Assembly (NCBI GenBank): GCA_003990765.1
Contig: RBNJ01000075.1
Location: forward strand, 1 to 43,496
Reading direction: 5' to 3'
DNA: 43,496 bases
DNA from: Jimgerdemannia flammicorona
Taxonomy: Eukaryota
The stretch's first letter is position 1; the number at the start of each line of letters is the position of its first letter. The notes beneath the pieces were generated by a model. The model was given only the letters and a program-made list of their open reading frames with translations. It ran no database searches and was not told the origin of the DNA. Below, in pieces: positions 1 to 25,729 of this stretch. Both the position numbers and the translations under genes were made by a program.

Positions 1-96
1 GGTGAGGAGGGGGACCCAAGGGGCATCGGTTAAGGTGGATAGAGGCATTTATGTATTATCTATAGAGGTATTAATAAAGAATGGGAGTCCAAGTGA

Positions 97-129
<33 letters not shown>
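1..129 (+). mobile_element. 3' end and poly(A) tail of an L1-clade LINE, abutting a Gypsy integrase
   Basis: ATTAATAAAG..GGAGTCCAAGTGACT followed by an A-run at 99-129. This matches the 3' ends of the LINE copies at ~35709-35789 and (reverse complement) 10016-10070. Confidence 0.85.
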
Positions 130-131
<2 letters not shown>

Positions 132-959
132 AGTACCATTTATCCATATTGCAATGGATGTGATTAGTCCTCTACCCCAGATTTTGACTGATAACTGATA
201 CATCATTGTTATCATAGACCTTTTTATGAAATAGATAGAGGCAGAACCTCTCAAGAAAGTCAATACACAGTCAATTGCTGATTTTTTTCACAAAGAAATC
301 ATCTGCTGGTTCAAGACTCCAACACAAGTAACCACAGATAGAGGAATAGAATTTGTAAATCATTTCTTTGAGATTCTCTACAAGAAGTATAAGATCCAGC
401 ACATTCATGCTACAGCATACCATCCTCAAGGAAATAGACAGGCAGAAAGGACTAACAAGACCCTCAAAAATATTATCACCAAGATCTGTGATAACTATGA
501 AAACTGAGATCACTATCTACCAATAGCATTATCTACTCTCCAGGATATTCAATCACAAAACACCCATTTCACCCCTTGGGAAATGCTGTTCAGAAAAGAA
601 GGTTCTCAAGAAACTCTATTATCTAATAGAGATACTATATGAAAATATATAGATAGAGAAATATGGAGACTATACCAAATCAGAAAAAGGCTGAGAATTA
701 TATAATCAAGGTGCAGATACTATAATGGAATAATGTGGAAAAGATTTACAAGCCTCTAGAGATTATCAAGATAGAAGACAAAGTTCTAGTATATCAGAAT
801 ATAGTAAAAGCTTTATAGTTATGAAAACTAGAACCTAAGTAAGAAGGACCTTACTTTGTGCAAAATATAAAAGAGACTACCTTTTGGCTATGAAAACTCT
901 CAGGCACAATTATCTCTACTATTATTCACTGAAACTGACTCAAGAAGTATCATAGCTAG
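130..959 (+). pseudogene. Ty3/Gypsy integrase core and GPY/F region (element A, no chromodomain), with nonsense mutations
   Basis: Manual translation: PFIHIAMDVISPLP..YIIVIIDLFMK*IEAEPL..VTTDRGIEF..TAYHPQGNRQAERTNKTLK (DDE motifs), and EGPYFV near 842. Confidence 0.9.
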
Positions 960-969
960 TTAATGAAGT

Positions 970-1506
970 ATGACCATAGCTCTCAAAATCACTAGTACTG
1001 CACAATGAGCTATAGAAAGACAATGGTATACTACTGAGCTACCCACAATAGAGGAATCCTTTGACAGCATTCAAAGTATAGTATAGATATATCTATTATG
1101 AATTTTATACTTCAAGATCTACCAGAATCAGACAGAGCTTCAAGAATACTTCAAGTTAGAACAGCTACTGAATTTGTGACCAAAAATGGGAAAAGAAGAC
1201 TGGATTAGAGAGTGCCAGCTCTCTCACTCTCAGATCATGATCACCAAACAAGTAAATAAGCTGTTCAAAGATGATAAGACAGCTCTAGCCTATTTCTAAG
1301 GAGTAGTTTCAGGAGATTTTGGATATATCAAAAGACACTATTGAGAGAATATAATGATACAAATAGCATAGTACAAGGAGATACAAATTATAGAAGCTTG
1401 GGAGTTTGAGTAAATAAGATATTTTAGGGATAAATCACCTATTCAGGAGGAAGTTGTGATGGTTGATCTGAATTAGGAATAAGAATCAGGAGAATTAGAC
1501 ATTTGA
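970..1506 (+). pseudogene. Extra post-integrase ORF of Gypsy element A, unknown function
   Basis: One frame from ATG 970: MTIALKITSTAQ*AIERQWY..ELQEYFKLEQLLNL..LSHSQIMITKQVNKLFKDD... Stops are single transitions from CGA/CAA/CAG/TGG. The frame runs through the PPT into the LTR. Confidence 0.55.
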
Positions 1507-1940
1507 TTATAGTACCTGAACTCAATTCTCAATATAGTATAGCTTTACAAATAGTAGTCATTTTACAAATGTTAAAGTTTTTATGAATGTTAAACTCTTT
1601 ACAAATATCAAGAATTCACAGATGTTAAAGTCTTGATAATCATCAAAAGATTTAACAGATATCAAAGTTTAATATTTGTAAAAAGTGACTCATAACATAG
1701 TCATAACTTAGCCACCTTATAACTAGTAAACTTGTATAAATATCTCCAGTATCTAGAGTGAATAAACCTCAGATCAAAATAGTTCAAAGCAAAGAGAAAG
1801 TAAAGGAACTAGTAAGCCTGCAGGCAGATACACTTTAAACTCACCTACTCCTGTATCCTGAGAACTCTGTAGAGTCAAAGAAGATCAAGTTTTCAAGATA
1901 CAGAAATCTGACATACTTTCAAGGTTAAGAGTCCACTATA
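1455..1940 (+). repeat. Probable 3' LTR of Gypsy element A
   Basis: Purine tract AGGAGGAAG, then TGTGATGG..CCACTATA (consistent with a decayed TGTGGTGG..CCACCACA). TATAAATA ~1735 and AATAAA ~1761. RT of element B starts right after it. Confidence 0.6.
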
Positions 1941-4268
1941 TTATACTAGACAAATTTGTTATTATCTATATTGACAACATCCTAGTCTTCAGCAAAACCC
2001 TGAAGGAATATCTTGAATATCTTGAACTAGTACTACTGAAGCTTTGAGAAAATCAACTTTATGCAAAACTCAGCAAATGTGAATTTCTTCTGAAGGAAAT
2101 TCAATTCCTGAGATATATTATCACTCTTAATGGAATCAAAGTAGACTCTAGCAAAATCTTCACAATCAAGAATTGGCCCAGACCCAAGAAGCTGAAAGAT
2201 CTCCAGTCATTTCTAGGACTAGTAAACTATTACTAGTGATTTATTGCCAACTTCATCAAGATCACTACTATTCTTACTCAAATGATCAAGTATAGTAAAA
2301 AAAAAAAAAAACAGCCTTGGACCACAAAGCAAGAAAAGGACTTCAACAATCTTGTAAATTAGAAATCTAAATAAGATACAGCCTTTCAAGCTCTAAAGGA
2401 TACCTTGATAACTACTCTAGTACTTTAAGCAGTAAATCCTGCCCTCTCATATGAAGTCACCACTAATGTCTCTAACTTAGCTCTTGGAGCAGTACTCATA
2501 CAAGAAGGACACCCTGTAGCCTACTATTCTTGAAAGTTCAATGATATCAAAATCAACTATATAATCTATGAGAAGGAAATATTAGCCATTATAGACACTC
2601 TGATCAAATAGTGACCATACCTAAAAGGAGTATACTTTATTGTTTTAACAGACCATAAATTATTGGTCAACATCAAGACTCAGGCTACTCTTTCACCAAA
2701 GTAAGCCAGATAGATAAAAGTCCTTATCAATTTTGACTACAAAATCCAGTATTGCCCTAATAAGAAAAATATTATTACTGATGTAATCTCCAGATCACTA
2801 ATTGAAAAAGTTATCCAAACTCTCATCTTAGTTACCAACTCTATTATAGAATAAATTATTGTAGCATATACTGATAATAAAGAAGTCCAAGCACTCTGAG
2901 AAATTCTGAGTAGTGACAATATTAACAAGTATATAAAATATCAGCAATACCAACTGAAGGACAATATCATCTACTATAAGAACAAATTATATATTTCTAA
3001 CAATTGAGATCTCTACAGCTGGACATTTAGAATTTGATAAATACTATAAAGTTATTTTCTGAAACTTCTATTGGTCCTATATAATAGATCAGCTAAAGAC
3101 CTATATTACTTTCTGTGATGCCTGCCAATACAACAAGTCCTCAACACTAGCAAAACCTGGTCTACTCTACACTATCTCAGTACTATCTGCCAATTGGAAA
3201 CAAATCTCTATAGACTTCATTATATAACTACTCTAAACCAAGAATGGGAAAGATACAATTATTATCTTCATAGACTATCTCAGCAAACAAGCCCACTTTG
3301 TATCTACTACTACAACTATAATAGTACCTGAAATCACTATACTCCTATTTAACAATATCTTCTGCTATCATGGTCTTCCTAAGATCATTATTAGTGACCA
3401 AGATCTGAAGTTCACCAGCTACTTTTGGAAAGCTCTCCATAACTATCTTAGAACAAAACTTGTACTATCCATAGCCTTTTACTCTAAAACTGGCAGTCAA
3501 ACTAAAAAGATGAACCAAACTTTAGAACAAATACTAAGGAACTATATTTTTTATAGATAAGATGATTAGCATGAACACCTTACTATAGTCAAGTTTACCT
3601 ATAATAATAACAAGCAAACCTCTCTTAGAATGATCTCATTTCTTGCCAATATAGGACAAAACCCAAACACCCCTCTGATACTTATCAAAACTACTGATGA
3701 ATTAGTTAAAGCTGTTGAAGAATTCCTACTCTGAATATATAATTTAAGTCAGATTACAATTGAGAATTTATCCCAAGCTCAAGAACAACAGTTACAGTAT
3801 GTTAACCAGTACTACTAAGAAACTTTTGACATCAGAGAAAAAGTTCTACTAGATATCCAAGAATACTGAGTTGATAATCTCAAGTACAGACTATCTATGA
3901 AGCTAAATAGCAAATTTATTAGACCATTTGAAGTCATTACACAAGTCTCTCCAACTTCTTACAAACCAGTACTACCAGATACCATTAAGATTCACTCAGT
4001 CTTCAATATTCAATATCTTAAATAATATAATAAAAATAATAACAAGCTATTTCTAAACTGAACTATAGAACCACCTGCACCTGTCATTATTAATGATTAA
4101 GAAAAATATAAGGTTAATCAAATTCTCAACAAATACAGCCATAAGAACCATTCAGAATATCTTGTCAAATAGAAAGATTATCTGATCCATAATGTAATAT
4201 AGAAACCCAAGACCAATTTCTAGAATGCTACTGACATAGTTCAAGAATATGATTTCTTGAATAACTAA
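1941..4268 (+). pseudogene. Chromoviral Ty3/Gypsy pol (RT C-half, RNase H, integrase, chromodomain), element B, 5'-truncated
   Basis: LDKFVIIYIDNILVFSKT (YxDD), KLSKCEF, LQSFLGLVNYY. RNase H: TTNVSNLALGAVL..YEKEILAI..TDHK. Integrase: SIDFI..ISDQDLKFTS. Chromodomain: YKVNQIL..EYLVK*KDY at ~4105-4260. Confidence 0.92.
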
Positions 4269-4972
4269 AAAACTGAACACTCTAGTATCTGTCAGTCTAT
4301 ACTATATATTACCCCTCTTGAATATCAAGTACTCTTATAATTATCATGAATGAAACCAAGAACTTAATAAGATAAGACAAAGGAATACTGATCTTCTAGA
4401 AAAATAACAAAACTGAAAGTCAGTCTATTCTCTCTATATCACTGATGGAAAACAAGACATAGATATTTAAGAAGATTCCTTAGAGAAAATTCTCTAGCAG
4501 TGAATGATGTCAGAATTACTTCTGGCATATAGTATCAAATATATGACTCTTTAATATGTGAATTCAATGCATTAGGCAACTATATTATGAGTATACCACT
4601 TTCTGAGAAAAATAGATGTTATTGAACTTTTGATTATCCAAATAGTGTAACAATACTAGATCAAATTTAGAAGACCTTGATGAGGATATCAAAAGCTAAG
4701 AAGGAGAGAGTTATAAGTACACAATCTCTAAGGCACCAAAATCACATGTCACCCTCAGAACAAATCTAGAAATTATATATAAGATCATGAAGCTGAGTCA
4801 AACCAAAGTCACAGAATACAAAGCTGAGTCAACTTGAGTTACAGAATACAAGATTTATACAAATAGAACTTTACCAATCAGGACTGAATATATACTAAGC
4901 ACTCAGATATATTGAAATGAAGAACTTCAATAAACCAAATAACAATCACAACTCTTGAATATATATATAAAT

Positions 4973-6036
4973 ATGACCACTGAGATTTACAACTATATTC
5001 ATACTGATATTTGGAATATCATTATCAACTGAGTCACACCTCTCCTACCCCTTATGAATATCTATAGTCTGGCATCTCTTTACTTTGTAGAAGCCTGATG
5101 GAATGCTCTGAACATGCTCAGCAAAGCCTACCAAATCAGACAAATCTCAAGCTATTACCAGATTGGCTGACTCCTAGAAGATATGATTGATACAGATATT
5201 ATCCAGATATCTCAACACCAGAAACTCATCACCTACAAATACTAAGAACTTTTATAAGTACAGCATTTTTATTCTCTATCTCTAAGTTACTACTACTGAA
5301 ATGATTGTCACTCTGTTCTATAGCCAAATTGATGATATAGTATAAGAACTCAATTACAAGTATATTGAGTATATTCAAACTACAGATAGAATCTTTCTAT
5401 ACTCTAATGACTATATTCTACAAATGTCCCAAGTTGGATATATCATGAAGGATATCTACAATATAATCTAGTTTAATAATAATAAAGCAGAAAATAATGA
5501 TTCCTCTGATGCTGACATAACCTCCAGCCAAGGATCCCTACCAGCCCTGATCACCTTACCAATCTTGTCAATGAACTTATAATAGTTCATAATTACCTAT
5601 GAGACCTATTGAGATAATGACCACTGGTATGAGTACTAACTTACATTTATACTTAATTACTTTAACTATAATAAAGAGACTGGAGAACACAACCTGTACC
5701 TCCAGACAACCCTTGAGATTAAATCAACAACTCTACTATCTGAGTATATATGATATAAAGAATAACCACCAGCTTATTATAACCTAGCAATACATAGTAC
5801 CATATAGAAAATATACAGACAGTGAATCTGATGAAAGTAAAGATGATACACCCCTCTTTCACCCACCAACTCCATATTCTGTATATGAGACTGATGATGC
5901 TATCCTGTAGAATGATGATATAATCTCAATATATTATTATCTGAGTGAACAGGGAGAAGTAATCCAAGAACCACTTTTTCTAGATAACTACTTCATCAAT
6001 GGTGATATTATTGAAGACTATCCAGATAGCATCTAA
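4973..6036 (+). pseudogene. More decayed copy of the LTR-internal (U3) ORF
   Basis: Colinear with 6779-7876, from MTTEIYNYIHTDIWN.. to ..DIIEDYPDSI*, with more transitions and small indels. Confidence 0.7.
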
Positions 6037-6778
6037 ATCTATAGATAGCTTAGCAGTTACTAATATACATAGTTAGATTAGTCTTATATAACATAACTAT
6101 ATACTGATTTAACAGTCAGACAATCTCTTAATATATTAGTTCATACTTATACTATATGACTGCATTCTGACTCAGCAAGGTACTAAGTACTACATCCATA
6201 TTTAGTATAGTCCAGATAGTCTCCCATTAGTATAAATATCCCCTCTACCAGACCTTAGAATCTCAGACTCAAATAGACTTAAATAATCTAAACATATAAT
6301 AACTTTTGAATACTTGTACATAATATTTCTTTACATACTACTCCTAGTATAGCAATATGTATTATAAATAGCAAATAAATCTATTTAATAACCTATAAAC
6401 CACTCTTAAACCCTATTAGGTCCTACTCCTAACCACATTATGAAATTTTCTAATTAGGTATTATCTGCAGTAATATACTAGTTCAACTATAAGTGCACAA
6501 TCTCCAAACTACTGAAATTACACATCACCCTCTGAACAAGCCACTGAAATCATATGCAACCTCTGAACAAATCTGGAAATCACCTATCTGATCATGAAGC
6601 TGAGTCAAACCGAAGTCACAGTACACAAAGCTGAGTCAATATGAAGTCATGGAACACAAGACTTACACAAACAGGATCTTACCAATCAGGACCAAATGCA
6701 TATATACTGAGCACCAAGACATGTCGAAAATGAAGAACCAAAACAAATAACAACCATAACTTCTGAATATACACAAAC

Positions 6779-7876
6779 ATGATCACCAAGATCTATAACC
6801 GCATCTGCGCTGATATTTGGAATGCCATTGTCAACCGAGCCACACCCCCTCTGCTCCTCATGAATATCCATAGCCTAGCACCCCTCTACTTTGTAGAAGC
6901 CTGATAGAATGCTCTGAACATACTTAACAAGGCCCACCGGATCAGACAAATCTCAAGCTACTACCAGATCGGCTGCCTCCTGGAAGATATGGTCGAACAC
7001 TACCATGATACAGATATTACTCAGATGTCTCAACACCAGAAGCTCATTGCCTGCAAACACCAAGAACTCTTTTATGAGTACAGCACCTTTATTCCCTGTC
7101 TTCAAGTTACTACCAGTGAAATGATTGCTACCCTGTCCTATGGCCAAATCAATGACATAATACAAGAACTCAACCACAAGTACCTCGAGTATGTTGAAAC
7201 CACAGACAGAATCTTCCCATACCCTGATGACTATATTCTACAAATGCCTCAAGTTGGATATACCATAAAGGATGTCTACAATATAATCCACTTCAATGAA
7301 GATGAAGTAGAAGATAATGACCCCTCTGATGCTGACATGACCTCAAGTCAAGGATCTCTACCAACCCTGATCACTCTACTAACCTTGCCAATGAACTTAT
7401 AACAGTTTATAACCATATATGAGACCTATTGGGACAATGACCACTGGTACAAATATCAACCCATGTTCACCTCTGATTACTTCAACTACAATGAAGAGAC
7501 TGGAGAATACAACCTGTACCTTCAGACAACCCTCGAAATTGAACCAACAACTCCACCACCTGAGTATGAGTGACATGAACCACAGCCACCAGCTTACTAC
7601 AATCCCGTGACTCATAGTGCTGTAATCTACAGAAGGTATATAGACAGTGAATCCAATGAAAGCAAAGATAATGTACACCTCCTTTGCCCACCAACACCTT
7701 ATCCAGTATACAAGACAGATGATGCTATTCTGTGGGACAGAGATGAAGTTTCAATATATTATTACCTCAGCGAATAAGGAGAAGTAATCCGCAAACCACT
7801 CTTTCTAGATGACTACTTCATCAGAGATGATACAATCAATGGTGATGTCATCGAAGACTACCCAGACAGCGTCTAA
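6779..7876 (+). pseudogene. ~365-codon ORF inside the LTR U3 region, unknown protein with two PPxY motifs
   Basis: One frame with no frameshift from ATG 6779 to TAA 7874-7876, containing listed ORF 6989-7402. Five internal stops (6902, 6905, 7400, 7571, 7775), each one transition from a sense codon. Two of them are sense (TGG, CAG) in the other LTR copy. Confidence 0.8.
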
Positions 7877-8065
7877 ACCTATAAATAGCTTAGCAGTCAT
7901 GGTATAGTTAGATTAGCCTTGTACAATGTGACTATGAACTGACTCAGCAGTCAGATGATCTCTTGACATGTCAGATCACTATTGTACTATATGACTGCAT
8001 TCCAACTCAGCAAGGCACTTAGTGCTATATCCATATTTAGCATAGTCCAGATAGCCCCTCACTAG

Positions 8066-8196
8066 TATAAATACCCCCTCTCCCAGACCTCAGAATCTCA
8101 GATCTGAACAATCCAAACACAACTTCTGAGCACTTCTTCACAATATTCCTTCACACAACTACTCCTAGTATAGCAATATCATGAATAGCGAATAAA
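8066..8196 (+). promoter_or_regulatory. Canonical LTR TATA box and poly(A) signal
   Basis: TATAAATA at 8066-8073 and AATAAA at 8191-8196, both also present in the outer copy (~6231 and ~6374). Confidence 0.65.
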
Positions 8197-8809
8197 CCTA
8201 TTTAATAACCCACAAACCACTCTTAAGTAAATCTGCTCCCCATTAGGTCCCACTCCTAACCCCATCACGAAATTTCCTAATCAGGTATTATCTGCAGCAA
8301 TACATCAATTCAACTAAGCTGGTGTTAGTTTCTTGAACTTCCTGAAATATGAAAAATCCTAAACATCCAGAACTAGTCCAAAAAAGGACTTTGGTTGAGA
8401 TGTCAACCCGATCTTGAAATCAATAAGTGTAGAGGACGTACTCTATATGAAATTGATCTTGACCATAAGAAAACAGTCTTTCAGAATATCCAGAACTTCC
8501 AGAAAATCCTTCCAGAACTATGTAATGGTTACCCTAAAAAGCAACCCTCTGACATCAACTAAGCTGATCTTAGTTTTTTAAACTTCCTAAAATATGAAAT
8601 ATCCTGAACATCTAGAACTAGTCTGAAAAAAAACTTTAGTTGAGATATCAATCTGATCTTGAAATAAATAAGTATAGAGGATATACTCCATATGAAATTA
8701 ATCTTAACCTTAAGAAAACAATCTTCCAGAATATCCAGAACTTCTAGAAAACTCTTCTAGAACTATATAATGGTACTTTTATAAGTAACTCTCTTACAAT
8801 CACCCTCTT

Positions 8810-9310
8810 TGAGATGCTTACTCTCCTATATCTCTCTTAATACTACTATTCTTAGACTACTTCTCTTACTAATTATTACTATTTATCTACTAACTTCCCA
8901 ACTCTATTTATTGTTTTTCTTTAAATATCTATCTCTAATATACTGCTATTAGGATCCAGATACCAAGAATTCTTTCTACACTATCTCATATATATATTTC
9001 CTTTCTTTCCTATCAGCCTTCTTTTGATTATCACTTCCACTATCTCTCCAACTCTATTACCCCTATCTCTTCAGTATATCTCTAAGTACTGTCAGTAATC
9101 TTTTTACTCTTGATAACTAGTCAAGATATGCTCTAGTATCTATACCTCTTTATTACTAGTTTTATTATACTATTTATACTCTTAATAGTCTTAGACATAT
9201 ATATATCTATTCTTTTCTATATTTCAACATTACATTCTTTTTCAAAAACTATCACCATACTATCTAAAACCTAGATAATATTATTTTTTACAAAGTATTA
9301 CTTTAGCTTA
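8810..9310 (-). repeat. Heavily decayed repeat, probably a non-LTR RT fragment of another family; second copy at ~27070-27575
   Basis: Direct similarity to 27070-27575. The minus strand gives RILGIWI / ILGV*I and *LVIKSKK, resembling RT domains 6-7. Confidence 0.4.
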
Positions 9311-9374
9311 ATATTTTGTCTTACTCTCAAAATTCATAAATTATTACTTAGTTAATATATATAAATATTTTAGT

Positions 9375-9704
9375 TAGTACTCAGAACAAATTGAATTAAA
9401 TCAAATTTATCTCTAATTCAATTTAATTTGAAATATTTACATTAAATTATGGGTTAATTTAATTTAATTCAAAGTCCAATTTAAACCTAATTTTTCAAAA
9501 TTCAATAACTCAATTAAAATATATCTAAATTTAATAGAATTCAGTATAATAAATAATATTAAATTTGGATATATTTCTATTGAGTTATTATATTTTGAAT
9601 TTGGACTAAATATTTCAAATTAAATCAGACTCTAATTTGATTCAATCAAATTGAATCAGACCTCAATTCAATTCAAATTTAATTTGATTTATTTAGAAAT
9701 ACTA
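9375..9704. mobile_element. hAT-type MITE with an 8-bp TSD
   Basis: Imperfect TIRs TAGTAC..AAATTGAATTAAAT / ATTTAATTTGATTT..ATACTA. TSD ATTTTAGT (9367-9374) and ATTTTAGC (9705-9712). The empty site is visible in the paralog near 26477-26485. Confidence 0.75.
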
Positions 9705-10015
9705 ATTTTAGCAATTGTATTTAAAATAAACCAGCTCTTAGTTCAGTATAAAATATATGAAGTCACTCTCTATACATATTTCTCTTGAGTTCTTAGTAAT
9801 GATATCTAAGTTACTCTAGTGTTTCTAACTAAACTCCAAAGTCTAACTAACTTCTATCAAACTGAGAATCAGTATATAAATCTAAAAAAGAAATCTCTTT
9901 AAATCTGAATCACAAGAGATTTAGTTTGTATATAGAAGAAATAAGTCTCTTATAACTATAGTTACCAAAGAAGAGTAATATATATTTTTTTGCTACAAAG
10001 AAACTATAATTTCTC

Positions 10016-13000
10016 TTTATTTTGTTTTTTTATAGTTACTTGAACTCTTTTCTTTATTAATACATCTGTCTATCCTCCAAAAATACATTGGGCCCACCCC
10101 TATCTGATCCTCCTAAGGGGTCTTCACCCCTCTCTCACCTTCTCTTAATGAAAGACTACTATATCATTTACTATCACTATCTGCCTACCACTCTGTTTAC
10201 AGATTCCTTCCACCAGATGGTGATGTCACCCACCCTAGAGACCCCAACCAACCCACTACTCTGTCAGCAAATCTCCCATCAACTCCTCCCATCTTAGTAA
10301 CTTCTCCTATATATCCATCTATCACCTCTCCTCAAAAACAAAGAGCCAATAACCAGCCAGCCCTATCTATATAGCTAAAACCCACTTTACAGTAAGCTAT
10401 CTATTGTCCACACCATCACTAACCTAGATTTAAAATCCTCCCAGTGATCTCTCTCCCCATCTGGCCTCCTCTTCACACCCAGCCAGTCCCCTACTACTAT
10501 CCAAAAGTCCCCCAGAATCTCACACTCTCCCAGCCAATATTCTGGTATCTATACAAATCCCCCAACTTACCCTATATTGTAATACTCCTCACAATCTAAT
10601 CATCTACCATCTACCAGATGTCTAGCATAGAAATTCAATATAATATTCCTCCACAGTATCTACTACCATACTACCCAGAACTTGAGAGAAAGCCACCTCC
10701 ACATCTCAGTACTCTATGACCAGACTCCTACCCAGTCCCACTTCTCATCAATCCTTACTACCTGCCAACTACTTGGCCAAATATCCTGACCAAGTTCCCA
10801 CTGATACTCCACTCCATCACCAATATCAAACTCAGTAAGTAGAACACCCCTCAGAAGCAGTCTGTCCCATCTCTACATAGCTGGTCCCTACAGCATCTCT
10901 CCCTTATTGCTCTACCAGTACAGGCCTATATAGTGAACTCTATTCACCACCTCCACCAGAAGCCCTTATACCATAGCCATCAGCTTCTATTCAGGTTTAC
11001 CAGAGATAGCAAGTCTCCTGATAACCCTCATGAGAAGAATCTCATCTCCCACACCTTCTGCATCAGTGGCATCCAACCCTCTCCCTACAGTTCAATAGCT
11101 CTTTTTAACTACCAAGCTCACAGGCAGTACAGCCTCTTAGGAAAATCCACTAGGCCTAGCCCTCCTCTAACCACTAGTGTTGCAAGAGTATTTCAACTGA
11201 TCTGAGGCCACCTTCCTGCCCAAATCCAATCTCTAGCTAGTTTCATCAGTCTCTTTACTATCTAAGCTAGAAAGTCCAAGTGATAAGCAATATACCATAG
11301 CTTGGGGAATCAGTAGACATTCAGAATCAACACTTGTCCTACTAGAGAGATATGGTGATCTCCCCAACCTCTAAGAGCCTCCCTCCAAATGGCCACCCTC
11401 CTCTCCTACTACACCTGTGGCAAGACAGATCCATATACAGAAAGGAAGATGCCTAAATACCACACCACCTCTCCTGTAGAGACAATTGTTCCAATGATGT
11501 CCCCTCCTACTAGCTCATTTCCCAGCACCATTGTCTCACACTTATATCAGTTGAGTCTTGCCCCAGAGTGCACCTCATACTATTCCACCATCTTCTTAAG
11601 TATCTCAACATCTACTACTGAGCCAAGTCTAACTACTATATCATTGGCAAAGGCCCCCACCTTCCATACTACACTATATATAGAGAGCCCTGCTACCTTC
11701 TGTTGAATTCTATCCATCAAAGGTTCTAATGAAAGGGTATAAAGAATAGAAGATAGTGGATCTCCCTGAGGAACCTCTCTTCCCAAGGGAAATATCAGAC
11801 CTCAGTAACCATTACACATCAGTGCTGCCCTACTGCCCTCCAATAGATTCAATATAGAAGCTCAAAATTGTGGGGGAACACCAATTATATCTAGCACCTT
11901 GCCCAGCCACATCTGCTGAATGTAGTCATAGGCCTTCTCCTGGTTCAGAAAAACCAGTCTTCCATCCAATCTACAAACCTGTGCCCCTTCAATAATGCCA
12001 TGAACTCTGGCTGTTCTATCTTTGATAAGCCTGTCTCTAATAAAGCCCTGCTGCTCCTCACCCAGCACCTGTTGGGCAATCTTCTGTAGTCTAGCAACAA
12101 TTACCTTAGTTACCATCTTCCTGTCCATATCCAGAAGCATTATTGGTCTCCAGTTCTTCCAGTTCTCTCTCCTCCCCTTTTCTTTATACAACAAGGCCAC
12201 CAGTCTCAAGTTCTGCTCTCCAACCCACTCACCATTCAGAAGAACATAGTCATAGAGAGATGGCATCTCTCCTAACACTCCAGGGATCTTTGCCATCTTC
12301 TTCCAAAAGTCCCAAGGTAACTCATCCTCTCCTAGTGCTATCCCAAGCTTAGTTGCCATGAGGACTCCCTGGATCTCCTCTTCTTGAACAGGTAGGATCA
12401 AGTCTCCAAGGCCCTCTACCTGTGGCAGTTCCCAATCCTCCAGTATGTCTCCAATCACTTCTTCATCTACACCCCCTTCCTCCTCACTCTACAGATCTCT
12501 CCACCTCTCCTTCAGTACTCCTAAGATCTGTTGCATGCTATGTATCATTTCCCCCTCTGCATCAAGGATCCCATCTCATCAATATCACACCCTCCTAATC
12601 TGGAGGAGTCTTGACAAATATCTAGTAGGCCTCTCCCCCTCCTCCAGCTCCTGCCACCTCAGTATGACTGCTATTCCTTTCATACATGTCTCTTCCTCCT
12701 CTCTCAGTATCTGTTGTAGCTCCATCACTTCCAATTTCACTCACTCTAATCTCCAATCATCTACCTCTTCAGAAGATATCAAATCTGCTCATTCCATCTG
12801 TAATCTAATCAACCAATTTGAAGCACACCTTATTCTTTTCCTTCTCTGCCTCCCAGCATCTCTACTAGCCCCTCTCTAGTAAACCCTCACAGCCTCTTTC
12901 AACTTCATCCAATGGACACCCACAGATGAACTCTCATGTATCCAGCTAGCACTTGGATGTCCTTTACCCATGGGTCCCACAATACCTTCTTAGCCAGCAG

Positions 13001-15906
13001 AGAGAAGTTAAGGTGCCAATGTCCAGGTCTATCTCCACTCCTCTCAAACTGCACCTACCCTAATAGCCCCCAGTGATCAGACCACAGACACCACTCTACC
13101 TCCAGAGTCTTCCAAACATCTATGCCCCAGCATTTGGCTGTCAGAATCTAGTCAATTCTTATACCCAGTCTATTCACCTGGTATATGTATACCCTCTTCT
13201 CTCCCTATTGTGTTCTGCCCATATCTCCTAAGGAGCTAAGGTTCTCCACCTCCTCTCATGTGTCCAGACCACCACTCCTCCCATCTACACTCCTCCCTCC
13301 ATCAGTTCTATCTAACCAAAGATCCCATATCATATTAAAGTCACCTCTCAGAACATCAACTCCTTCCTCCAAGAGAATGTCCTCCTTCAAAAGATCTCTA
13401 ATCCACACAATCTGCTCACCCCTAGCTACAGGGCAGTAGTAAGAGCCAACTCTCACTGACTCCCACTCAGGTCAATGCCATTCTCCCCAGACCAAACAGT
13501 TACCCCAGCTCCTGATTCTACTTAAATCTCCTCTACTCCTCCTCACCAGAATCACCACTTTGTCAATCCAAGCAATAGCTCCTCCCCATTCTCTAGTCTA
13601 TTCCATCTGATCCTCCTCATCCTCACACTATATATTCTGCAGTAGAAAGAGATCAGCCTTCAATCTCTTAAGCCAAGTAAAAATGTTCTTATACCACCCA
13701 GATCTCCTTAACCTATTTACATTCAGAGAGAAAATATTAGTTATACTATTCATAAGAAATAATATTAATTATTAATCTCATTCTCTATAAATCTACATTC
13801 AACTCCTCCTATACCAAGTCCAAGTTATGTTCAGCAGCCAGTCTCTCTTCTTCAGCTATCTTTGCCTCCAGCCCAACCAGAAGCTCAGCCATCTCTTCAT
13901 TCTCTTTTTCCTTGAAGTCCTTATGATACTCTGGGCATGCCTTCTGCCAGAGTTGTAAACCATGATGCTCTGCCCAACAGTAGGCAGCCCTTTCACTAGC
14001 AATGATTGCCAGCTCAGCCTCCCTCACCTTATCAACCTTAAATCTCTTCTCCTCTAAGAAAATTGCAAGTATCTCTGCCTTCAGTGCCTCCACCACTCTA
14101 TCTCTATACAGAATCTGTACCCAATGCTTCTCACTTATCACTCTCAGGTCCACTTCCCCCAACTCCTCCACTACAAAGTTATTCATCATCCAGCTCATCT
14201 ACAGCAGGTTTCCCACCTCCTTCCCTCTTGGCATCCCTGGTCTTCCTGTATCCAGTATTGTGGTATCTGCCTCTATACTTACTATCTCATTCTACCCCTC
14301 CTCTGGGATATCCACCAGCTCATCCTCACCAACTGCCACCACCTGTCCTCCTTTTGCCATATCAGGAACTCCAAAGTGAACTTGCTGAGTGCCCTGCATC
14401 AGCTCATCCTCTACCATCTGATCCCTTGCAGCAGAACTTCACCTGACTAGAGAAAGAGTGTCTTTTAAGACCAGTTCTCAGACTTCAAATGTTCCATCAG
14501 CAAATGAGTCCTTGTATGGTGCCTTCCTGGCCCCATCCAAGCCCTCTTCTATATCTCCTTCTCTCTTACTAGCCCAGACACTTGCCTCTGCACCCCCAGA
14601 CATCTCAGTACCCCCAGCAATCTTCTTCACCCCTTCTTTTATGCTTACCAATAGCTCTCTCTACTTCCTGTACCCTTGAGCTCTCTCCTACTGCCTCTTG
14701 TCAGTGCAAATATATTTCTCATCTATAATCTCCAAATGTGTTAACTCTATATACAACTTTCAGACCTTCACCCTCTGTTCTACTGCTCCACTCATCTCTT
14801 CCAGAACCTCCAACAAGTTCTTCTCCTTCTCTTCACTCCCTTTTACCCTTGACACCTTATAGACAAAAGCCCCATATATCATTACTAAAGGCTAGTCACT
14901 CATCTTCTCCATGGTCTCTCTTCCAGCCAGTCAAATTCTGACATCTATATCTTCTATCCTAAAAGTGGTCCCCTCTCACATCTGGAAACTGATATGTATC
15001 AACCATATTACCATACTCCACCATCATCTCCTCCACCCTCCTCCTAGTCTCTTCCTTCATCACCATAAGTACCCCCTTCACCAGTAACTAAACCACTCTG
15101 GGGTCTCACCTCAAACACCATACTATAGAGACCACCACCTCTCCTACTGTCACTCCAGTCCTCAAAGCCTCCTCCAGTAGACCTGTCTCCTCAAAACCCA
15201 CCTCCACTCTCTCCAATCTCTTTAGAAACTTTACTAAGGCTGCTTCAGCTACTTGCTCTGAGATAAGCCTCAGAATCATTCTCACTGTCACTACCAAGCC
15301 CTGAAAATACAAGATCATAGTGAACTCCAAGATCAACTTCTTGAATAATGGTGCCACCATCAGCCCCATCACACTATTAGGTCCTCCTTCTGCTTTGGGC
15401 CCCTCTGCCTAACCCCCCTATCAATAGGTACATCCAGATTTTTTTTTCAGATTCCCAGTTACACTACCATCAGCAGTCCTGCCTCTACTCCCAGCAGCTA
15501 ATCCATTAGTCCTTCCTCCCACCAGCTGCAGTCCAGTACTTCCAACTTCTCCTTCTTTCTGCTTTCTTTTCTCTCTAGCCTACCTGCTATGAGTTTCCAC
15601 TGGCCAACCTCCAGCCTTCAGCATATCTGCAAAGCTCCTCTCTTTCTGCCCTCTAACCCCTCCACCAGTACCACTTCCACTGCCCAAGCTGTCCTGCCCA
15701 CTTGGGCCACTGAAAGACCCTATCCCAAGTCCATACCCTTATCTAACATATTGCCAGTTAAAGACCCCAGATCTACCCAATCTAGTATATATATCTTATT
15801 ACTCATTGGTTGCCATGACCTTAGTATCTTTCTTCAATAAATGGGTCAAAAGTATATTTCAAAGTTTGTGTTACATGAGTGATAGTGGAGAAAGATCTAA
15901 ATATAT
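10016..15906 (-). mobile_element. Full-length L1-clade LINE (ORF1 ~15816-13786; ORF2 APE-RT-Cys-rich C-terminus from ATG 13753), inactivated
   Basis: APE: NIFSLNVNRL. RT: NWRPIMLLDMDRK..QQGFIRDR..NQEKAYD, PQGDPLS, FAND. Poly(A) at ~10016-10031. TSD AAGAAACTA(T/C)AATTTCTC at 9998-10015 and 15907-15924. Confidence 0.93.
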
Positions 15907-16795
15907 AAGAAACTACAATTTCTCAATCTTAGTACAACTAAGCATAAGAATAATTAAAAGGTTTTTTGATATATATATATGTGTCAAGTCTTTAAGTAAT
16001 ATCTTATTATCTAAGTTATCTAAGGATAAGCTTGGAGTAGTAATAAGTGTTATTACAAAAAGACAAAAATAAAATCTTCAAGTTCAATACCTGAGTGATA
16101 TCAAATGTTCACTTTGTTTGGTTTTATTACAGTATGCCCTATATATTAATTATTCTGTAATTTAACTTATATAATAGTTAAGAAGAAAAAAGATTAAATT
16201 AGCATGTAGAATAATATGAAGTTATAGATATTTTCTCAAGTTGCTCAGTAAGACAAAAGAGTTGAGAAAGAGATAATTATCATATCTGAAACATTCATAT
16301 CAAAAACTTGCAATATATACAGATAGATCAATTAGTGTCTACTTAAGCGATCAAAAGTTTTATTACTGAGATAATAAATGGGTAGTAGATAGAGATATCA
16401 ATGATATCCGAGAAATCCTCTTGAGAGGTCTTCTCTTCCTCACAGGGTTTTGCTTGATAGGGCTGCGCACAAATGTATATACCGAGTGAAAATCACTCCT
16501 CTGACTAGCGTTGACTAGGCATAGTTAGTAATGATTGCTCGATGCAGCACATTGACATAAGGTCAAACTTGGTCGCAAATGTCAACGCGAATCGCATTTC
16601 TGTAAAATGTCATGGCCGGCATATCCTGCCGGCTGACGTATTTGTGATGGTGGGCGATCATGTAACCTTCCGGAATATCGATTTTATTAATTCACAGGAT
16701 AGCAGACAGCAGTCATGAAAAAGAAAAAGAGACGTTCGAATCATTTTGGAAGTCAGGCTCCATCTTACTAAAAAAATGTTGTAAACGTTTCTCCG

Positions 16796-19700
16796 TCACA
16801 CATTTTGATCCACCTCGCTTAGAACCGGAGGTGAAGATGTAATAGGCTGTGCTTCATTTTCGGTCGCGTTCCTTGGTACGGATGTCGGTACTGCCTCCGA
16901 TATAGCCTGGACTTCGATCAATTCGGCACCCTCGGCTGGAGGCGGCGGTGGAGGGAACAGCTCCGCTTTTAGGTTAGGCAGGAACAGGCCGATACGCTGC
17001 CATGTTACGTCCCACAACCCATTGTATTCTGGGTCACTGGCTTGATACGGTGATGACTTGGTGAATGCACCCGATGTATACATCACGAGAATCATGTTTT
17101 TCAATGACTCTGGAACGGCCTCCTTCTGTGCAAGAGTAGAAACGATTAAATTGATTATGGCACGCAAAAAACAGGGTTTACAGAGAATGGTCTAAGAATG
17201 GCATACCAGATGGTCATTTTCCGATGCGTTCATATACTTGTCCAGTAAGTCCAAGATATGCAACCAAAGGTCAATAAGCCCGTTCCATTCGAGAAGCCGG
17301 CTGAAGTAGTGAAGGAAGATCTTGCAAAGCAACGCAGACGCACGCATGCGGGCCTCATCGATGCCGTGAGGGTCGAGCTGGAAAACTTCCGGGCGAAGCA
17401 ACTCGTTTAATAGAGGGAAGAGGACCAGCTCGAATATGGATACCCAATCATTGGAGCCATTCCCGCTTTCTAGTTCAGGCAGCAAGAGCGCGCGCTGAAG
17501 GTGAGTTAGAGCGTGCTGGCGCACTTCGCGGGTAGGGTTAAAACATTGCTGGCTCAACCCAGTAAGGATGGGCAGCCAGTACTTGGACCAAGCTAAAGGA
17601 CAGTGTGTGACTCGTAAGAGATATGAGGGAGGTAAGTAAAGCACTAGCATCCCGAAAACACAACGACATACCTTTATCCATGGAGATTGTCGATTCTTTT
17701 ATCAGTCTGGGTACTTGTGTATGCAATTTGTATAAAAATTCAATAGCCTTGCGTGCCCGGTCAATGGATGCACCTTGACTATAGCCGCATCAACGTCTGA
17801 GTGTTAGACCGATAAAGCTTTCTGTCCACTCCAGAGAACGAGCGGTCTGATTCGCTATCTTTTACTTACAGTTTGGTCAATCTGGCTCTATTTCCTCGCT
17901 GTGCCTGACTCGTTTCTTTCTCTGAATCGGCGCCGATCCCAGCCACATTTGCAAACTTGCCCAGCAATTCCACAACGCCGGAAAAGTTATCCTCGTGAAT
18001 ACTGGTATTGCTCGACTCGGAAAGGAGACAAGTGGTGGCCTCGAACGCATATTTGGATGCCTCGGGGTGCGTGGCTGAAGCAGATAATAACGTGAAGATG
18101 GTCTCCCAGTGTGTTCGGCTCCTGGTGAATTGGTTTGGGATTAATCGACAATTTTGTATTCGGTCGATAGAAATGTATTGCGAGTACTCACGTGATGCAT
18201 GACTGCTCCGCTTTGATCAAGTTGAGAACTCCTGCCATCATCTGCTCCGAAACAGAATTCATCGCTTGGGGAGGCAAGGCCAACAACAACTCCAAGCACT
18301 GAAACACTTCCGAGACCATTTCCTCCTACGTTTCGATGAGACCCGAAGCCAAGTCAACCAAAACCCATAAAATGAATGTGGGTAAATCACTCAATGGTGA
18401 TATTGATCAGCAGAAAAGACTCCACACAAAACACATGGTCCTCTTTACCTTGTGAGCCAACCGTATGCACAACCGTAACAATCCAACAACGGCCCTCTCG
18501 ATTAGTAGCACGCTCTGATTGTTAGCTTGTTTGAGAACATGTTCCACATATTCGAACACAATTGGGCTGGTTGTATTACCATACAATGAATTTTGTAAGT
18601 ATCCTAGCAATTTACTTCATACATGCAAGAGGCAGGTTGGCATAACGAATTCGATGGCATACCATAAAATTTGTATCCGATCTCGGTTCTGGATGGTAAT
18701 GCTAATCATCAATTCCAAGAAAAAGACCGCCGCTGGGTCATAAGGGATCGGTCCTGTGGTCTTTGGAGATATGGAGGATTGTGTTTCAGAGCTTTCCGCG
18801 GCAGGGGGAGCTGGATTACCTATATGTCTGATTGCCTTCATCAAGTGCAGCAACGGCTCTTCCTCAAGGAACCTGATGAGATTGGACAAGAGATCGATAA
18901 GGTGTCCAACGTAGGGTCAAGATCAACCGGAAAACATTCACCGGTAGATTTTTATGAACACCAACCTAATATCACCGAATAGTTCTTCAAGCCTGCATGC
19001 TACCACGCAATCCACAGCGCACATGGTGCTCTCAACCTCTTCCTCTGTCGGGTCTGCTCGGTACGTGTCGTCGTTGGAATAAGGCGATAAGAGATATGAT
19101 GACAGAGCGGAAAGAAGGGATCCGTCCCGGCGGTTTTGCGGTTTAGGCTGAGGAGCGGTCTTTGGTTTCAAAGGGATGCTTGTTGTCCCAGCCAAGAAAT
19201 CTTCCACTTGCAACATAGAGCTCGGCAGTAGAGAATTGATGAAGAGGTTCTTGATCATCGTCAATATCTACAAGCGAAAAGAAACTCAATTCCTTAACTC
19301 TTTTGAAGGTGTAAATGCTCAAAGAAACCGGAGAAAACAGATTGTCGATACGGAAACTCTTACATTTTTCCAACCTTCACGCAAAACGTTTCCGTGCTCG
19401 CTCGCCACCGCAAATACAACGACCGCAGCAAGCTGACCCTTATAGTTTCGTCCAAACTGTACCGCCAATTCACTGACCATAAACTTCTGACCAGCCACAT
19501 CCACAATCGGATCCAGCGCTGTTTCGTTTGAACCCCGTACGTCTAACAGGCCCGTCATGCGTGAAAGCGTGATTACAATGCTGTCGAAGACATCGTAGAG
19601 GCTGTAATGGGCTGATAACAAGGCGCATTGGTGGAAGCCGGTGATGGCCTTCTGCAGGGTCGCGTCGTCCTGGGCAGTATTGAAGGCTAGTTTGTGGGGA

Positions 19701-22700
19701 TGCATGTGTTGATAAATCGACAACTGGATCATATCAACAGTATCTCTATTGACACACGGCCATGCGTCACTTACCATAGGAAATCGCGGCGATGGTTGGT
19801 TTCCAAGCCAATAAGAAAATATCTCGATCATAGATGGTGGTATTACACACCACAAATTGACCAGCCATATCAGCGCGGCTAAGCAGTTCTTTCCACGCGT
19901 AATTGAACCCGAGTTGACCCTCGTGCTCTTCGGGCATCACAATCTCCCGCTTACGAATGGCGTCGTAAATCGCTTGCTATTGAAATAATGGAGAGATGAG
20001 ACACTAGTGTTTCTTTTTCAACACAAAGCATGTGTCAGACATTTGTACCCACCAAATAATCCGCATTGAAGTTTTGCCCTTCGTTCACACCTCTTAAATT
20101 CTTCATGTAATCCTGCGGAGACATCCGCCTCTGTATATTTATAAGAAGACAATATCGCGGTGTTAATCCAATCTCACGCCTATTATATGTCCAAAGATGA
20201 CGCAGAAGTAATGGACAATAAGAACTGGCACAGACTCACCCGAACCTGAGGATTGTGAAGATCTGTGTTCAGCATGATAACAGAATACGACAGCATGAAA
20301 GTGGCGTCTTGGGACGCAATGTCGGCGGGCTGAGTTGCGAAATAGGTTTCCGCGAAAGTCTCTACGACTCGGCCGATCTGCTGCGCCTCACCGGGCAGAC
20401 GAAATGTCTCCAGTAGATCACGCAGGGCCTCGTCAATACGTTTCTGATTTTTTTAGAGAAAAATTCGTGTTTGGCATGGTTGGGTCATGAAATATAATTT
20501 TTTTTTTTCATGAGCATAAGTTATTTTTCCGTAAAAATCATAAGACTGGTGAAGCCTCCTTGGACAAACTTACGCCAGAGAAATCAAACAACCGAATGAA
20601 CGCCTTCAATATGTCAATGTTCTGCGGCTTCGACAAGTAATCGCCCATCAACTTCTTATTCAAGCGAGGCGTTGACATGAGGAATCTAGCAAGGCTCGTA
20701 TTAGGATCTTCCTCCGGGTCATTGTAGATGATGCCGTTTTCTTGATTCGGAGTGCATTGGAAATAATAGTATTAGATATATCTAAGCGAAGCTTGTTACT
20801 AGGTATAATTTTTCATACGATTACCCAACCTTTCAAGAATTTAATCCCGTCTTTGGAATTCTCATTGAACCTGACTGCACCCTCTAACAAGATCCGTTTG
20901 TGGGCTTTAAGCTCTAGCAGTTTGGTCGGCGAGGTGAACAACTAAATGATTGTAGGATGTTATGGAGTATAAAATATACGGTTGCATACCTTCCGTCAAC
21001 GGAGGATATGTAAGACTGCATGAAGATAAGCAAGTACCTGTTCATCATTCAGCAATGGTTGGCCCCCTTCGACAAGGTTCTTCAATTTCTACCACCCCCC
21101 CCCCCAAAAAAAAAAAACGGACGCGTTGTCAAATCATGCGTATGCCAATGCCGCAAGATGAGAAGCACGACGCCTACCTCGTCACCAATACGATCTACCA
21201 TGTGATTGACGAACATCAACAGCGAATCTAAGCAGAGCATGTGCGAATTACTGGCCGAGTAGCTATTCGGCTCCGGAAAGGAGTTCTGTGAAGTTATGTT
21301 AACAGTCAGATCGAGAAAATCATCTTTGAGCAATTTGTTACTCACGATATGAAAATCACATGGCCATCGATACACCTACTCACCTTGCTCAAGAACTTAA
21401 CCGTCTCTTCGAATAAATCCCCGCAATCCAAATTACAATCATAATTGACCCACAGATCCACCATAAACGTTGGATTCCTCGCGCTCTGCCCTAAACACTC
21501 GAGTAACAACTCGCGCACCTCCCCTGATGCAGCGGGAGCATCAGCACGACCGACAGAGGCGCGACTTTCAGATCGCGGACCGCCAGGTTGCGGCGAGACG
21601 GGACGCTCGCGCTCGTGAATATGATCAGGTGTCGGGATGACAAGGGTGATTGAGCCATCGAGATCAATATCGAAAGGGAGGGATTTCGGAAAGTTGGGGG
21701 GGGTGAGGCGTTCGATGAGGAAAAAGAGGAAGAGCTCTTGTTGGAGCATTAAATAGGGACGCATGGTATCGAAAACGGTGGAAGTGACGCGGAGTGTGAG
21801 CGTTAACAGGGGAATAATGTCTGTTCTCGCGAGCTTGTAGCATTATAATGAAAGGAGATGATGAAACGTCCGAGGGGAAGGTTAGGAAGTATAATTAAAT
21901 TAAACCAACCATGTCACACTCCAATCACGCGTCCCATTCGCCAGATACCCCTACAATCTAACGCACCTGGAACAAATACTTGCAGAAATCGTCCACAACT
22001 AATGATCTTAAAGACTCGAACTGTGCAATGCTCTTGCCGCCGACATCAAGGGCTACGTTCAAGATGCTCAAAGCCATTAGGCGCATCGAATCGGTGTGCT
22101 GATGGTCATGCGGATTTAGAAGCGAGATAAGGACGCGAAGCAGTTCGCGTATCGCCGGAAGCCCGTATGGTTTGGGCGTTTCTGAAGTTTAAATTTGAAA
22201 TCCATTGAGTGTAGGAAAGTTCTTATCACACACGAAGAAGTATGTAAAATTTTAAAGAATTGAATTACCGGAACTTTTCTCATCATACAATCTTACCGCC
22301 GTCTCACCCTTCTCCCCATCCTTCATCTCCAAGACCACACTCTTACTCAATCCGTCACCACTTTTCTCCACAGCACCAAACTCGGTCGGCCTTGGATCAG
22401 AAGCCGACCCTTCCCAAGAATCTTCGGGGCTGACTTCCGTCGAGGGGGCAGTCTGCGCGGGCCCTGATGACGAGGTGGGCGCGTTCATGCGCAGTTCAAT
22501 ATCCACGGGATCAGTAGTGGCGGCGGGGATGGCCAAGGGTTGTTCATCCTCGAGGATTTTTAGCCTGGATATGCGGAGATGAAAAAGGGAAGGTTAATGG
22601 AGAAATGGCGTCGAGACGAAAAGGATGGCATGTGTCGTAGATGTCTGTGTTACCTCTCAAACATGACCTGAACCATGTTAATCATAACGTGTTCCGCGGA

Positions 22701-23829: not shown

Positions 23830-23929
23830 CTTAAATAGGCATTTTGGGGGACGTCATATGCCACGACACACACCCGAGTCACGACACGACACGACACACG
23901 AGCCACGCGACACGACTTTTGTTTGCACT
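23830..23929. promoter_or_regulatory. Compact bidirectional promoter region with CACGA/ACGAC repeats
   Basis: 100 bp between the divergent ATGs, containing GACGTCA and tandem CACGA repeats. Confidence 0.55.
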
Positions 23930-25532: not shown

Positions 25533-25729
25533 AATATTTTATGTTGCTCAGACATTTTCTGCTTTACTGGTTAGGAATTGAAAATCGCATCACAGCTAAT
25601 ATGGCTTAGCAATTATATCTGTAGTTAAGAAAATATAATAAAGTATTACTTAAAGTGGATTAATTATCTAATCTAATTTATATATATTGAAATATTTTTA
25701 TATTAGCAATTAATAGCTTAGAAGAAATC

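Follow-up and report, generated by a model that had tools for sequence, protein, structure and literature searches.

The window analysed here, a stretch of 43,496 nucleotides from Jimgerdemannia flammicorona (contig RBNJ01000075.1), contains a solo LTR of a Ty3/Gypsy retrotransposon which encloses, from start codon to terminal stop, a decayed ORF of 365 codons. Comparisons with two uninterrupted homologues indicate that this ORF descends from a real gene. Taken together, our observations make it moderately probable that the window records a chromovirus-like Ty3/Gypsy family with an LTR of about 2.07 kb and a family-specific gene of 365 codons in U3, which would have its own mRNA and encode a putative accessory regulator.

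The left 9 kb of the window hold a decayed Ty3/Gypsy element and, after it, two copies, A and B, of one long repeat (Table 1). The three plus-strand frames of positions 1-4700 were read through their stops and searched against Pfam, which gave matches to RVT_1 (E 5.1e-6; 26.8 bits, slightly below the curated cut-off of 29.6 bits), RT_RNaseH (E 7.4e-21), Integrase_H2C2 (E 2.4e-6) and, clearly, SH3_Tf2-1 (E 1.8e-12), the RNase H and integrase domains scoring above their own cut-offs. Along positions 1860-4000 the domains follow the order RT - RNase H - integrase, as in Ty3/Gypsy elements (Metaviridae). A further match to Chromo at 4068-4268 (E 0.026; 14.9 bits versus a cut-off of 25.1) aligns profile positions 1-50 of 53 and falls on a decayed copy. 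The element is truncated at about position 1860, and a spacer of 430 bp separates the pol region from the polypurine tract (PPT).

Table 1. Features of the retroelement region and the basis on which each was assigned (positions refer to the window; PPT, polypurine tract; TSD, target-site duplication)
Feature	Positions	Strand	Basis
Decayed Ty3/Gypsy pol (RT C-terminal part, RNase H, integrase Zn-binding domain, SH3_Tf2-1, weak chromodomain)	1860..4270	+	Pfam, read through many stops
PPT, directly 5' of the first base of LTR A	4691..4711	+	Read from sequence; a contig of run X2 joins the same PPT end to the LTR start TGTAAG (loose end before 6496)
3' LTR copy A, part 1, broken by the insertion of copy B	4712..6487	+	BLAST
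Heavily decayed ORF copy in LTR A	4973..6035	+	Projected on the frame of copy B
TSD, left copy, TCAAC (5 bp)	6483..6487		Read from sequence
Solo LTR copy B, 2067 bp, nested in LTR A	6488..8554	+	Decayed TG...CA termini, TSD, without internal region
Two 31-bp units, each with TGAGTCA (6601-6607, 6632-6638), enhancer-like	6597..6659	+	Repeat and motif; conserved in copy A (4794, 4825)
CCAAT (6682-6686) and TATA-like ATATATAC (6700-6707), 72 bp before the ORF ATG	6682..6707	+	Motifs only; both conserved in copy A
ORF of 365 codons, ATG 6779, TAA 7874-7876, five internal stops, no frameshift	6779..7876	+	Translation, shuffles, homologues
TATAAATA, presumed promoter of the genomic RNA, end of U3	8066..8073	+	Motif; depth rise in X4/X9 from bin 8144 (RNA by guess)
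AATAAA poly(A) signal, the sole one in LTR B	8191..8196	+	Motif
TSD, right copy, TCAAC	8555..8559		Read from sequence
3' LTR copy A, part 2 (tail), ending ..CTCTTACA	8560..8798	+	BLAST

A BLAST search with positions 6488-8554 against the window returned exactly three pieces: the query itself, positions 4730-6489, which align with positions 51-1829 of copy B at 77%, and positions 8555-8798, the tail of copy A together with the TSD, which match positions 1823-2067 of copy B at 84%. Copy B begins with TATAAGTG and ends with ..CTCTGACA. The end is CA, and the start, TA in the window copy, is decayed from the TG of other copies, whose contigs begin TGTAAG; in one contig this start follows the same PPT end, and in another it follows an unrelated flank (loose ends before 6496 and 6537). 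The limits 6488-8554 and the 5-bp TSD given in a preliminary description of this DNA are therefore right, as judged by sequence, BLAST and contig starts. That description had also called the LTR defined by its PPT. The tract does fix the same first base, the first base of LTR B being the one that directly follows the PPT in copy A, but it precedes copy A at 4712 and not position 6488.

In the uninterrupted LTR B, TCAAC occurs a single time, at 8310-8314, the homologous site. The duplication of this sequence is therefore real, and a filled and an empty site can be compared within a single window. Copy B belongs to the same family as the older element into whose 3' LTR it was inserted, by an integrase-type event, and it was later reduced to a solo LTR. 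An origin by tandem duplication is excluded, because one such event cannot yield three LTR segments with a TSD. A candidate '245-bp tandem repeat' was likewise rejected, as it consists of the TSD and the end of LTR A beyond the insertion.

Copies A and B are 80% identical and differ by 301 transitions, mostly at CpA, and 45 transversions. The CpG observed/expected ratio is 0.0-0.25 in the repeats (0.0 in pol) versus 0.98 in the genes at 17-25 kb. As far as base composition and substitutions tell, this pattern fits methylation-linked or RIP-like inactivation of repeats. Together with the Tf2-type SH3 domain and the soil origin of related sequences, it makes a fungal host likely. The raw skew of A/B differences over codon positions (70/45/99) was considered as a sign of constraint and rejected, as it was gone under a context-matched control; the raw excess at third positions arises because fewer C/G sites are found at codon position 2. 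Under the same control, copy A carries 83 nonsynonymous changes versus 90.3 +/- 4.5 expected (P 0.064) and copy B carries 28 versus 31.2 expected (P 0.20), with stops arising at the neutral rate. For the contigs of other copies in the sequencing runs, a hand tally of the 22 ORF rows listed, out of 501 difference rows, gave 7/2/13 over the codon positions, which is not significant given the fewer C/G sites at position 2 (about P 0.09). The mutual divergence of the two copies is neutral, context-dependent deamination. A dN/dS comparison, which had been proposed as a check, thus finds only neutral decay when made on the two window copies, and the signal of constraint comes from the comparison with a distant homologue described below.

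In copy B the start codon of the ORF sits 291 bp inside the LTR, and the frame is broken by internal stops at 6902 (TGA), 6905 (TAG), 7400 (TAA), 7571 (TGA) and 7775 (TAA). Dinucleotide-preserving shuffles of the region have 24.8 +/- 4.5 stops in this frame versus the five real ones, and among 2000 shuffles none had as few as five, whichever of the six frames, the ORF frame included, was counted. The remaining real frames of the region have 10 to 34 stops, the antisense frame -0 having 10 in 365 codons. The ORF copy in LTR A is decayed further, with 14 internal stops, frameshifting deletions of 2 and 5 bp, and in-frame deletions of 12 and 15 bp. Two of the five stops of copy B are sense codons in the second copy (6905 TGG, 7775 CAG), as had been stated, and the other three (6902, 7400, 7571) are common to both. 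The remark that all five stops are single transitions is also true, but it carries no weight as evidence, because any stop codon is one transition away from a sense codon. C-to-T and G-to-A decay has inactivated the two window copies, which are now dead relics.

To look for relatives, the ORF was compared using HMMER with 1.84 billion representative proteins. This search yielded two matches only, both of them uninterrupted, unnamed ORFs from metagenomes. The first, P0003 (128 aa, on a contig of 1180 bp), is 84% identical (E 7.9e-62), shares its start methionine with the window ORF, and reads R-W where copy B has its first two stops. The second, P0002 (247 aa, on a contig of 998 bp), is 59% identical (E 4.8e-91), covers residues 115-365 with the same C-terminus and stop, and has sense codons at the other three stops of copy B. 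Against neither homologue is a frameshift needed, in agreement with the earlier description of the ORF as frameshift-free. In the other length classes of the homologous-protein search, near lengths gave no match and shorter lengths gave only P0003, and P0002 used as query returned only itself. Metagenome scans gave no confirmed locus among 34 pattern matches for P0001, the window ORF, and 382 for an alignment of P0003 with the window ORF, and P0002 had no match among viral contigs.

P0001 and P0002 share 146 identical residues and differ at 98, and both of the indels between them are in frame. The differences from P0002 have a mean BLOSUM62 score of +0.33, versus -0.47 to -0.57 (sd about 0.17) in a neutral simulation started from the window's own codons. 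Neutral runs stayed free of new stops with P 0.0025-0.0325 at 59-72% identity and in 5-8% of cases at 80%. The conservative substitutions of P0002, its open frame and the in-frame indels are therefore evidence of constraint at the protein level. The differences between copy B and P0003 have a neutral-like mean BLOSUM62 score of -0.32 and, by eye, nearly all fit C-to-T or G-to-A decay of copy B. On these sequence comparisons, the ORF was a real, constrained gene, with the signal of constraint coming from P0002, a distant homologue that need not sit in an LTR. The suggestion that the ancestor had been intact is thus borne out by the two open homologues together with the conservative substitutions and in-frame indels.

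Up to 17% of the sequence words of the LTR recur in soil-metagenome runs and in two small runs from one organism. Contigs that fit the LTR at a likeness of at least 80% numbered 3311 in run X1, 527 in X2, 314 in X4 and 478 in X9, and together they span the ORF. The ORF region belongs to a high-copy repeat family, since hundreds to thousands of contigs cover it in all four runs. At position 7400, nearly all other copies in each of the four runs read C, giving CAA where copy B has TAA. In X4 and X9, which are RNA by guess, depth is 100-1000 times higher from bin 8144 on than over the ORF, the step lying about 75 bp behind the TATA box at 8066. This step hints at the assumed boundary between U3 and R.

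In reverse transcription, the stretch from the PPT to R constitutes U3 and is copied to both ends of the element. Over its whole length, the ORF falls between the LTR start at 6488, as defined by the PPT, and the TATA box at 8066 and poly(A) signal at 8191, with a presumed start of R. The preliminary description was accurate in placing the ORF entirely upstream of these two signals, a further TATA box being present at 7880. From the positions of TATA and AATAAA and the depth step in the guessed-RNA runs X4 and X9, we infer that the ORF is in U3 rather than in R. Reverse transcription would therefore copy it into both LTRs. Its duplication with every LTR, claimed earlier, agrees with its location wholly inside the LTR and downstream of the PPT-defined U3 start, the content of the 5' LTR following from the mechanism and the solo LTR. 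Its survival in a solo LTR, claimed likewise, is seen directly in copy B. Upstream of the ORF, the first 290 bp of the LTR contain the repeated TGAGTCA, a putative bZIP (AP-1/Gcn4-type) site, followed by the CCAAT and TATA-like motifs. An Rfam search over positions 4000-10000 at E<=0.1 found no RNA family.

The encoded protein is acidic (pI about 4.05-4.4) and rich in tyrosine and proline, with 9% tyrosine. Cysteine is absent from the two intact relatives, and neither a zinc knuckle (CCHC) nor a basic run is present. AlphaFold2 predicted, at low confidence, that the first 140 residues or so are helical and that the remainder, acidic and aromatic, is mostly coil (pLDDT 30.4 for the whole protein with 4 rows, 46.1 for the N-terminal 128 residues with 2 rows). 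An annotated homologue, family or fold was found neither among the 1.84 billion proteins nor in Pfam, the PDB profile search or the Protein Atlas. Pfam gave no family at E<=1 for the window ORF save RAMP (E 0.12), rejected as a chance-level match, and none at E<=5 for P0002 or P0003. The only match of the PDB sequence profile, to SKA1 (E 0.084-0.086 over 27-28 residues), was also rejected as chance level. For P0002, the model stored in the Protein Atlas has a pLDDT of 0.39, with all TM scores <=0.30 and no feature match; for P0003, the recognition score was below the bar and the shared features (131-154, <170), for example with a closterovirus coat cluster, were taken as chance.

Two candidate identities were rejected by the same searches. 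The MMTV_SAg family gave no Pfam match at E<=1 for the window ORF or at E<=5 for P0002 and P0003. A retroelement Gag was discarded with no capsid-like family (Retrotrans_gag and relatives) at E<=5, no CCHC, no basic run and a pI of 4.05-4.35. Acidity and the lack of a zinc knuckle, basic tract and cysteines therefore indicate neither a nucleocapsid-type Gag nor an Env. By its composition, the acidic-aromatic tail resembles an activation domain, and our guess is that the protein may be regulatory.

The reading that we favour can be set out as follows. The gene would lie between the polypurine tract and R in a long U3. Plus-strand priming and strand transfer would copy it into both LTRs in each cycle, and LTR-LTR recombination would leave it behind in solo LTRs; these steps follow from the anatomy seen here and the established mechanism of reverse transcription. 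A separate mRNA of about 1.45 kb would run from behind the module of two TGAGTCA sites, CCAAT and TATA-like box, which lies within the first 290 bp of the LTR, to the LTR's own poly(A) signal. The protein would act for the element as a regulatory accessory factor; we would guess first at a transactivator of the LTR and second at an antagonist of the host's silencing. Against this reading, copies A and B differ as neutral deamination predicts, and the three of five stops common to both could come from a master copy already without the gene and not from parallel CpG/CpA hits.

A bolder form of this proposal, which we regard as doubtful, is that the LTR is a self-contained gene cassette, as the preliminary description had it: every 5', 3' and solo LTR of the high-copy family would make an orphan acidic protein on its own, and this protein would raise LTR transcription or weaken a methylation/RIP-like or RNAi defence of the host. 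If true, hundreds to thousands of promoter-gene-terminator units would be dispersed and would outlive the elements themselves, a mode of amplifying a trans-acting factor that is not described for LTR retrotransposons.

The same gene might instead lack its own promoter and be expressed in retroviral style, from a spliced subgenomic mRNA that starts in R of the 5' LTR, as for sag, nef and bet. Such an arrangement would place the ORF in the 3' untranslated part of a genomic RNA starting after the TATA box at 8066, a start that the step at about 8144 in X4 and X9, if these runs are RNA, marks as dominant. We consider it unlikely: no splice junction onto the ORF was found among the joints listed for the contigs of the sequencing runs, the CCAAT/TATA-like/TGAGTCA module stands directly before the ATG, and a gene expressed in this manner would be silent in a solo LTR.

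It is improbable, in our estimate, that the ORF is a passenger, that is, a host or foreign gene caught in the LTR of one lineage and then left to drift, with the constraint belonging to the donor gene represented by P0002. The ORF part belongs to a high-copy repeat in all four runs, and P0003, with the same start codon, differs from the window copy almost solely by the window's own transitions. The lack of constraint in A and B and their three common stops out of five would suit such a history, as would the fact that P0002 is known only from a contig of 998 bp; yet no annotated host gene family emerged, only two short metagenome ORFs among 1.84e9 representatives.

Still less probable is a location of the ORF in R. 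The genomic RNA would then start at the TATA-like box (about 6700), R would measure about 1.5 kb, and the gene would be a first cistron, either a leader or a Gag-like ORF0. The conserved promoter-like module before the ORF would be accounted for, and the N-terminal third of the protein is predicted to be all-helical. These points are set against the two further TATA boxes (7880 and 8066), the position of the only AATAAA downstream of the ORF, and the depth in X4 and X9 (RNA by guess), which from 8144 onwards is 100-1000 times that over the ORF. Further points against it are the strong acidity of the protein, the missing zinc knuckle and the lack of any match to a gag family at E<=5, and an R of 1.5 kb would, to our knowledge, be unprecedented.

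That no gene existed at all, the open frame coming from skewed base composition and the 'LTR' being a tandem duplication, is hardly credible: the plus strand is T- and G-poor and the antisense frame -0 also has few stops, but none of the 2000 shuffles comes down to five stops, two homologues with E values of 1e-62 and 1e-91 are open, and three LTR segments with a TSD are incompatible with one tandem duplication.

Genes in or near U3 are known from other retroelements. The sag gene of mouse mammary tumour virus (MMTV) is a complete superantigen ORF of about 320 codons in U3, hence present in both LTRs; it lengthens the LTR and encodes a membrane glycoprotein of a mammalian retrovirus. The preferred reading, a U3 gene of a Ty3/Gypsy family, resembles it in that a whole ORF, here of 365 codons, lies inside U3 of an unusually long LTR. 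It differs in that the element is a Ty3/Gypsy retrotransposon and that the protein is acidic, probably soluble and, by Pfam, not related in sequence. The nef gene of HIV/SIV and bel2/bet of foamy viruses are 3' accessory ORFs that lie partly in U3 and start in unique internal sequence. Like them, the window ORF, a putative accessory gene, lies beyond pol and the PPT and shares sequence with U3; unlike them, it has its ATG 291 bp inside the LTR, and a solo LTR could not keep the nef or bet ORF. Cassandra TRIM elements carry a 5S rRNA gene, a Pol III RNA gene, in each LTR of a non-autonomous plant element. There, as putatively here, the LTR bears a transcription unit that is duplicated with it, although in our case the gene encodes a protein and no Rfam match was found in 4000-10000.

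Plant aORFs and the brtn gene lie in the internal region or in antisense, are not known to lie wholly in the LTR in sense, and are single-copy per element and lost when a solo LTR forms. In this they are generally unlike the window ORF, which lies wholly within the LTR on the sense strand. The antisense gene brtn belongs to Boty/BcGypsy1 of Botrytis cinerea. The window ORF is similar to the plant aORFs and brtn in being an additional ORF that is specific to its family, lacks known domains and belongs to a Ty3/Gypsy element, a fungal one included (PMC8365987). Searches of freely accessible full-text papers returned no fungal retrotransposon with a gene inside its LTR. With a constrained gene wholly in U3, the window shows that the sag-type arrangement has arisen outside animals too, in a Ty3/Gypsy retrotransposon.

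Retrotransposon LTRs are normally treated as non-coding and masked before gene calling, which may explain why only two unnamed relatives are present among 1.84 billion representatives. A location in U3 doubles the gene dose per element, and the survival of the gene is uncoupled from gag-pol because solo LTRs keep it. If expressed, the gene would be a candidate for a regulator, or a factor of counter-defence, supplied by the element itself in a genome where repeats are inactivated through cytosine deamination, and it offers a concrete case for asking whether solo LTRs can exceed the role of promoters.

The family may also vary in this part of the LTR. In crapaud of Podospora, a fungal chromodomain Gypsy element, the available part of the description reports LTR subfamilies that differ in their 5' half and share their 3' half; it describes gag and pol ORFs and, within that part, no LTR ORF, unlike the element studied here. 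The likeness to crapaud lies in the DNA run X1, where the 3' part of the LTR is about three times as deep as the ORF part, and some subfamilies may therefore carry a different U3.

Besides the decayed Ty3/Gypsy element whose 3' LTR is split by a nested solo LTR, the window carries further mobile-element remnants and a block of host genes (table). A non-LTR-type element is present as two direct copies and a relative in inverted orientation; in all three, G/C asymmetry between the strands is extreme (|skew| 0.37-0.57), and the CpG observed/expected ratio is 0-0.04. The two direct copies share 71-81% identity at an offset of about 7.86 kb. The depletion of C is one-sided, falling on the coding strand of these elements, and is unusual.

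Features located in the window
Feature	Position	Strand	Remark
A run, 29 bases	101-129		immediately 5' of the integrase-core fragment
Integrase-core fragment (rve)	130-900		E 2.6e-10
LTR-like stretch (TATA-like, AATAAA-like motifs)	about 1500-1860		by eye
Inverted relative of the non-LTR-type element, with RT-like ORFs	about 10000-16000	inverted	
GC-rich block	16800-25600		GC 45-55%; CpG normal
Integrase-like ORF	29659-30087	-	
Non-LTR-type element, two direct copies with RT-like ORFs	30276-35440 and 38117-43293	+	

The rve fragment is part of another, truncated Gypsy copy, separate from the Gypsy element truncated at about 1860. In the latter, the truncation point of the reverse transcriptase adjoins the LTR-like stretch, which is probably the LTR of another nested element. 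On the minus strand, positions 29368-29672 show 68% identity to the integrase region of the Gypsy element (3370-3674), and together with the integrase-like ORF they form a third Gypsy remnant in the window.

Within the solo LTR, a 61-bp segment in 8098-8217 was seen to be absent or doubled in other LTR copies, at joints in two sequencing runs aligned to the LTR (X4 and X9); this copy-number variation coincides with the presumed transcription start/R region. An extra 31-bp unit at 6529-6559 (ACTGAAAT...CCTCTGAACAA, occurring twice), present in the solo LTR and missing from the split 3' LTR, is a second short duplication, located at the 5' end of U3.

Long ORF pieces place spliced host genes on both strands of the GC-rich block, and the translation of one of them, read by eye, contains a candidate Walker-A motif of an AAA-ATPase.
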